DNA of 64,000 nucleotides from Escherichia coli. GTDB lineage: Bacteria; Pseudomonadota; Gammaproteobacteria; Enterobacterales; Enterobacteriaceae. The position numbers and the translations under genes were made by a program. Below the pieces are notes generated by a model, which was given only the letters and a program-made list of their open reading frames with translations, did not search any database and was not told the DNA's origin. The first letter of the stretch is position 1. Each line of letters opens with the position of its first letter. Shown in pieces: positions 38,931-39,463 of this stretch. Location of the stretch: assembly GCF_003334815.1 (NCBI RefSeq), contig NZ_QOWO01000024.1, one strand, 5' to 3'.

Positions 38931-39463
38931 CTCAGGAAGGAAAAAGTGGCTTTCGCGCACCTTAGGTCAGACAAGGTGTCCGGGAAAGTCAATGGGAAGA
39001 GAAAAATTTGTTAAAAATAACTGTTCGGCGATTTCTTGAACGGCATAATAGGTTAGATAAATTGATATAGATGGTTTATTAATCTTTTTGCTAATGATTG
39101 CAAAAATTGATCTAAGCACGAGTCATCACATAATCTGATGTATCAGTTGTGGTCAATATATAAGCGAATGTAAGAGATTGTTGATGGCGAAATGGTTGTT
39201 TTCTATTCGGTTATTGTTAAATGCTAAGCCATTTTGTTAATTTACCTTATATTATAAGAAAATTATTCATGACTTTAATTTAGTTTAAATATAACTGATA
39301 TCCCTGAAGGTTATTAACTTGAATTATGACGCACTGATATTATTCATCAAATAATAACAAAATAGCCATTGCACCGGGTTGAACAATTTACAAAAGAAAG
39401 ATATTCCATATCGTATAATGCGATTAAATACGCCGTCTTATAGAAAATGATGGTTAGATTAAT

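Follow-up and report, generated by a model that had tools for sequence, protein, structure and literature searches.

The AT-rich DNA upstream of yfaL in Escherichia coli: a published H-NS-bound promoter island that probably joins a yfaL-linked block to nrdAB control DNA

Background

In the Escherichia coli DNA analysed here (64,000 nucleotides of contig NZ_QOWO01000024.1, hereafter the window), the autotransporter adhesin gene yfaL begins directly behind some 470 bp of strongly AT-rich DNA (38990-39463), in a spacer that it shares with the divergent operon nrdAB. The locus raises the question of which of the two neighbors this DNA belongs to, and what it does there. A first-pass annotation made from the letters alone had described it as a conspicuously AT-rich yfaL leader with many A/T tracts, lying within a 695-bp divergent spacer and of the kind that marks silenced promoters bound by H-NS or Fis. 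We consider it quite probable that the stretch has two parts, an nrdAB control end (38990-39043) and a yfaL-acquired, H-NS-bound AT block (39044-39463) that keeps yfaL low. The AT-rich stretch is real, but it has already been published as an H-NS-bound promoter island; because its AT-richness, H-NS occupancy and density of promoter-like sites are all on record for K-12, the finding is an ordinary one. Only two points are mildly new: where exactly the nrdA control DNA ends, and that alleles too diverged to be aligned have kept their composition and length.

Results and Discussion

The locus and its relation to K-12

The window is a segment of E. coli chromosome that runs opposite to the K-12 orientation. 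Its principal features around the stretch are:

36483-38768, minus strand: nrdA, start codon at 38768
38879-39043, minus strand: nrdAB promoter and upstream control DNA, covering the first 54 bp of the stretch (38990-39043)
39044-39463, plus strand: yfaL-linked AT-rich block (hereafter the AT block), 420 bp, 28.1% GC; forms the core both of the stretch and of the promoter island published as H-NS-bound
39464-43216, plus strand: yfaL (ehaC), the gene to which the AT block is linked, annotated as a 1250-aa autotransporter adhesin of the AIDA-I family, start codon at 39464

The two start codons, at 38768 (minus) and 39464 (plus), leave exactly the 695 bp (38769-39463) that had been noted as common to yfaL and nrdAB, and the gene order past yfaL is ubiG, then gyrA. 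From nrdA to yfaL (6.7 kb) the sequence departs from that of MG1655 at 3 positions, of which one (39075) is in the spacer, so that K-12 data are directly transferable; the conversion used is window position = 39464 + (2344169 - U00096.3 position), where U00096.2 position = U00096.3 position - 1978. A REP-like repeat at 36306-36474, between nrdA and nrdB, resembles one at 43238-43321, between yfaL and ubiG, with cross-matches of 81-93% identity.

Base composition and predicted curvature

GC content is 28.9% in the stretch and 51.6% in the window as a whole. Among the 63,527 positions of a 474-bp scan (mean GC 51.7%, sd 4.6), only 8 lie below it, all of them overlapping it, with a minimum of 28.7% at 38991; it stands ~5 sd under the mean, and 200-bp windows between 39000 and 39400 reach down to 25.5-31% GC. 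The AT-richness before yfaL therefore holds in a windowed analysis, as the lowest-GC 474-bp region of the 64 kb, and the 28.1% GC of the AT block is well below that of its host, as in H-NS-silenced acquired DNA. The 'many A/T tracts' fared less well: 21 tracts of at least 4 bases are indeed present, but shuffles of the stretch hold 21.4 +/- 3.3, and since the count is what composition predicts, the tracts are no separate signal. The beginning of yfaL, its first 750 nt, is GC-poor too, though less markedly (GC 42-46%, GC3 0.37-0.44), and yfaL as a whole has a GC3 of 0.517, compared with 0.59-0.66 in nrdA, nrdB, ubiG and gyrA. The next lowest-GC regions of the window lie at 350-823 (34.6%) and 17685-19487 (37-39%).

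Curvature prediction, another of the checks that had been proposed, gave a weak signal. A wedge model predicts one local bend at 39080-39115, but for the block as a whole the predicted curvature is only marginally above that of shuffles (16/300 reach the observed mean), and neither a 10-11 bp AA/TT periodicity nor helical phasing of A-tracts is present in the AT block.

A sharp boundary with nrdAB control DNA

DNA conserved in association with nrdA runs from the nrdA start to ~39043 and ends sharply, just past a Fis-like site. The elements within it are:

38922-38930, minus strand: DnaA box TTATCCACA, inside the nrdAB control DNA
38934-38984: HusR boxes, from the published HusR study
39000-39023: A/T-rich stretch of the nrdAB control DNA
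39027-39041, no strand assigned: Fis-like site GGCGATTTCTTGAAC, with which the conserved nrd block ends; its centre is ~156 bp from the nrdA start, on the upstream side

The nrdA transcription start presumably lies at ~38878, as placed from a 110-nt leader. Identity to the window over 38879-39043 is 96% in a divergent allele from a genome labelled E. coli (L005), 89% in E. albertii and 81% in a Pseudocitrobacter genome, and this segment can also be aligned with yfaL-less Enterobacteriaceae. Compared with L005, similarity is lost at 39042 and comes back at 39559, with 96.4% identity in 38769-39043 and 47.6% in 39044-39463. Conservation with nrdA in relatives is thus confined to 38990-39043; the segment 39044-39463 is absent where yfaL is absent, and between allele classes it is 40-48% identical, near chance for such composition, while nrd-proximal DNA is 96% identical. 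Judged from these alignments, the first 54 bp of the stretch are to be read as nrdAB control DNA rather than yfaL DNA. They fall within the nrdAB upstream region already known (DnaA boxes, inverted repeat, AT-rich element, Fis site), which is conserved with nrdA across Enterobacteriaceae; the remaining 420 bp differ from that region in being missing from yfaL-less species.

The core of the Fis-like site is kept in all aligned Enterobacteriaceae, and we take the site to be the one published at -156 by Augustin et al. (1994). A Fis-like site does therefore exist in the stretch, as had been supposed for a Fis-bound yfaL promoter, but because it sits inside the conserved nrdAB DNA, the Fis part of the proposal belongs to nrdAB and not to yfaL. 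According to a review, the class Ia RNR of E. coli is repressed by H-NS and NrdR and activated by Fis, IciA and DnaA.

The entire AT-rich stretch might then be mainly an upstream activating or cell-cycle element of nrdAB (binding Fis, IciA/ArgP and FNR) that came to lie beside yfaL by accident. A published FNR ChIP peak assigned to nrdAB, at 2,342,585, maps to about 39070, within the AT block; and between the K-12 type and a B2 strain of E. coli the ends of the block are 90-96% identical (distal 100 bp 90-92%; 39400-39500 92-96%), compared with 77-80% in the middle. Yet the DNA that travels with nrdA across Enterobacteriaceae stops at ~39043, yfaL-less species have a ~350-bp spacer without a 25-29% GC block, the block varies with the yfaL allele while nrd-proximal DNA does not, and under the published peak every candidate FNR site has at least 3 mismatches. 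We regard an nrdAB element of this extent as unlikely, and return to the reading of a two-part stretch.

Insertion of yfaL between ubiG and nrdA

A search with the NrdA N-terminus, taking one genome per species, yielded 80 Enterobacterales loci. ubiG is followed directly by nrdA in about 70 of these, across a gap of 340-630 bp with 33-50% GC and without any block of 25-29% GC. A yfaL or yfaL-like gene intervenes in 4/80, three of them with an AT block, a patchy distribution in keeping with acquisition. The carriers are:

L005: labelled E. coli
L006: E. albertii
L012: Pseudocitrobacter metagenome-assembled genome
L036: strain RIT691, with a 54%-identical relative of yfaL

The 300 bp before the gene have 25-29% GC in the first three and ~35% in RIT691. 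Other cargo of 2-10 kb occupies the ubiG-nrdA junction in seven further loci (L042, L048, L059, L063, L068, L070, L071; Mixta, Pantoea, Lonsdalea), and since different cargo lies at the same place in these seven, the junction is a recurrent insertion point. Six of the inserts were inspected: five have ordinary GC and multi-gene sets of ORFs, and a ~2-kb Lonsdalea insert is of lower GC with no ORF of at least 150 aa. On this comparison of gene order, yfaL together with ~420 bp of AT-rich DNA (39044-39463) is an insertion beside the essential nrdAB operon.

Variation and conservation of the AT block

Every one of the 5,426 complete E. coli genomes contains the AT block, at a query coverage of at least 80% in 5,423. 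Between the K-12 type and the B2 strain it is 86.0% identical (39044-39463), compared with 97.9% for nrdA and 96.7% for ubiG, and yfaL itself is 84.4% identical over nt 1-750, 70.0% over nt 751-2250 and 93.3% over nt 2251-3753. Because the block changes along with the yfaL allele while the flanking nrdA and ubiG stay alike, block and gene evolve as a single unit.

What the alleles share is mostly not sequence. The five aligned blocks (window, B2 strain, L005, E. albertii, Pseudocitrobacter genome) measure 419-430 bp each and have 28.1-29.3% GC. Short conserved islands stand out within them: AAAATTGAT (39103-39111) is kept in all five bar one base in E. albertii, TTACAA (39388-39393) is conserved throughout, and the longest is:

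39150-39176, no strand assigned: conserved island TGGTCAATATATAAGCGAATGTAAGAG, shared by the five otherwise unalignable alleles

A functionless spacer left by the insertion, AT-rich through mutation bias alone, would explain the near-chance identity between allele classes, but it sits badly with the narrow range of length and GC in the five blocks, with the islands at 39103-39111, 39150-39176 and 39388-39393, and with the near-universal coverage in complete E. coli genomes; of all the readings weighed here we find it the hardest to credit. A hidden gene in the block was rejected, its only ORFs being of at most 24 aa and lying in DNA that cannot be aligned between allele classes.

Two kinds of variation concern the start of yfaL. 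In the divergent alleles L005 and L006 (~9300; 78% amino-acid identity) no in-frame ATG stands at the K-12 start position, and an ATG further upstream is in another frame. Insertion sequences have entered the locus in other E. coli strains: IS1A ~30 bp before the yfaL ATG in L085 (~39434 in window coordinates), the IS5-family element ISKpn26 in the middle of the block in L086 (~39223), and IS1B within yfaL at codon ~90 in L001, the three insertions being independent.

Published binding data

Panyukov and Ozoline 2013 (PMC3661553) list a promoter island at 2342143-2342676 (U00096.2), yfaL/ypaB, as entry 2342143_534, one of 78. These coordinates convert to 38979-39512 in the window, and it is through this match to the published island, rather than a run of PlatProm, that the segment is assigned to the class, which is defined by a density of at least 8 PlatProm-predicted transcription start points per 100 bp over at least 300 bp. 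Table 1 of the same paper marks the island 'A', that is, H-NS-bound in all three ChIP sets (Grainger, Kahramanoglou, Oshima), and it is classed there as associated with acquired genes; promoter islands as a class give little or no productive transcription. In the genomic SELEX of Shimada et al., the yfaL-nrdA spacer contains an RpoD-holoenzyme peak and carries the 'HNS' mark from H-NS genomic SELEX. The expectation of nucleoid-protein binding is thereby supported for H-NS, the stretch coinciding with an island bound in three K-12 ChIP studies with which the SELEX result agrees.

Other published data bear on yfaL expression. The GadEWX ChIP-exo table assigns peaks to yfaL, across its start codon:

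39448-39509, no strand assigned: ChIP-exo peaks assigned to yfaL (2342146-2342207 in U00096.2)

These are entered without an expression change, and the table gives no yfaL transcription start. Because the main text of the paper names GadE and GadX as regulators of yfaL, we take the peaks to be those of GadX. yfaL is not mentioned in the transcription-start and 3'-end mapping supplements searched. Biofilm formation mediated by YfaL has been studied after a constitutive promoter was placed upstream of the yfaL ATG, which fits weak native expression of the gene without proving it.

High-affinity motifs are weak evidence here. The block contains one near-match to TCGATAAATT, which is reportedly a high-affinity motif for H-NS (Lang et al. 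2007):

39054-39063, plus strand: TAGATAAATT, matching TCGATAAATT at 9 of 10 bases

Matches of this quality number 12 in the whole window, against 4.4 expected, and do not cluster in the AT block; with this single match in the block, motif clustering was rejected.

Promoter-like sites and the leader

A consensus scan found 9 promoter-like sites in the 420-bp block, or 21 per kb, against 0.8 per kb in the window (26x). Those of most interest for yfaL are:

39107-39134, plus strand: distal promoter-like site TTGATC-16-CATAAT, directed toward yfaL; would give a ~320-nt leader if used
39387-39419, plus strand: proximal promoter-like elements, 45-77 bp before the ATG, namely TTTACA at 39387-39392, TATCGT at 39409-39414 and, as a perfect match, TATAAT at 39414-39419

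The distal site is the yfaL promoter proposed by Shimada et al. from RpoD genomic SELEX. In the K-12-type allele the 9 sites exceed the 3.5-3.6 of composition-matched shuffles, in which 9 were reached 11 times in 1000 and 4 times in 500. By the same crude consensus scan no such excess over shuffles is present in the B2 allele, L005, E. albertii or the Pseudocitrobacter genome; an excess of promoter-like sites was accordingly rejected as a conserved property. Since it is limited to the K-12-type allele, the 'island' character is mostly a consequence of AT-richness, and what is conserved is composition, not promoter density.

Transcription from the distal site would make much of the block a long yfaL 5' leader, and regulation could then act at the RNA level (riboswitch, thermosensor, sRNA target or premature termination). 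The SELEX-proposed site and the ~320-nt leader that it would yield speak for this. A structured RNA leader was nonetheless rejected, with no relevant Rfam match and a fold of 39141-39480 no better than shuffles (z = -0.49); a scan revealed no terminator-like site in the region, the allele classes are unalignable, and, as noted above, the 3'-end mapping supplements searched do not name yfaL. With no RNA family, no unusual fold and no conservation between alleles, the marks of a cis-regulatory RNA leader are missing, and we judge regulation of this kind to be very improbable. An H-NS-bound DNA block remains the preferred reading of 39044-39463.

Comparison with known systems and proposed mechanism

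The yfaL block is itself one of the listed promoter islands (PMC3661553): it shares their AT-richness, their density of promoter-like sites, their H-NS binding and the proximity of an acquired gene, and it differs from the class in nothing of substance, the excess of sites over composition being specific to the K-12-type allele in the crude scan. The analogous comparison with agn43 (Ag43), whose phase variation depends on Dam and OxyR, extends to both being upstream regions of E. coli AIDA-type autotransporter adhesins and no further: the 695-bp yfaL spacer holds one GATC (39109) and no cluster of Dam sites, and Dam-site phase variation was rejected.

Loci such as bgl, proU and csgD are examples of H-NS silencing. 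H-NS reportedly silences acquired DNA of low GC, a process called xenogeneic silencing (Navarre et al. 2006). The yfaL block resembles such DNA in its low GC, its tie to an accessory surface-protein gene, its occupancy by H-NS and the presence of IS1 and IS5-family insertions in some strains. It differs in that its immediate neighbor is the control region of nrdAB, a housekeeping operon that the cell cannot do without.

A mechanism consistent with these observations would run as follows. yfaL would have been inserted between ubiG and nrdA with an AT-rich upstream block, or would have gained one later. H-NS would coat this block by virtue of its base composition. RNA polymerase would bind the many promoter-like sites, whose number has led to the block being published as a 'promoter island', and would seldom yield yfaL mRNA, so that productive transcription of yfaL would be held low under laboratory conditions. 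The block adjoins, and probably influences, the nrdAB control region. We infer that H-NS is what silences yfaL; the choice among the candidate promoters that may drive the gene is likewise presumptive, and the reported effects of H-NS and FNR on nrdAB would presumably act through the AT block.

A bolder reading is prompted by the retention of ~28-29% GC and ~420 bp while sequence diverges past alignment. The AT block might act as a silencer or insulator module that goes with the yfaL allele and in which selection maintains physical properties, not sequence, and modulation of nrdAB by H-NS and FNR might be a lineage-specific by-product of acquiring yfaL, absent where ubiG abuts nrdA. We put this forward tentatively, and think it rather doubtful. 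The arrangement is of modest wider interest, in that the same upstream DNA lies before an essential, cell-cycle-regulated operon and before an accessory gene that is probably silenced, a clean natural case in which to ask whether silencing of acquired DNA spills over onto a housekeeping neighbor; the sharp boundary at ~39043 and the availability of yfaL-less relatives make the spill-over question a testable one.

Observations on the nrdA side of the spacer

One annotated gene lies within the nrdAB control DNA:

38896-39039, plus strand: ypaB, small ORF of 47 aa annotated in RefSeq, reading toward yfaL and wholly within the conserved nrdA control DNA

This position, together with the fact that in B2-type strains its ATG is a CTG and RefSeq annotates nothing there, makes its coding status look doubtful; the HusR study did, however, measure a ypaB transcript.

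The layout of the nrdA promoter varies among lineages (window 38769-38960; L007-L038, ~9650-10000). A DnaA box lies upstream of the nrdA -35 region in E. coli and E. albertii as well as in the Pseudocitrobacter genome; in Citrobacter, Klebsiella, Enterobacter, Kluyvera and others there is instead an inverted pair, TTATCCACAG...CTGTGGATAA, in the nrdA 5' UTR after the NrdR box. In P1-like phage-plasmids (235 plasmid matches), ~115 bp are 77.6% identical to the DnaA-box/-35 part of the nrdA promoter (window 38892-39006; L003 3001-3115). This segment lies ~65 bp upstream of hot, which encodes a homologue of DNA polymerase III theta, with the ypaB/yfaL-sense strand facing hot.
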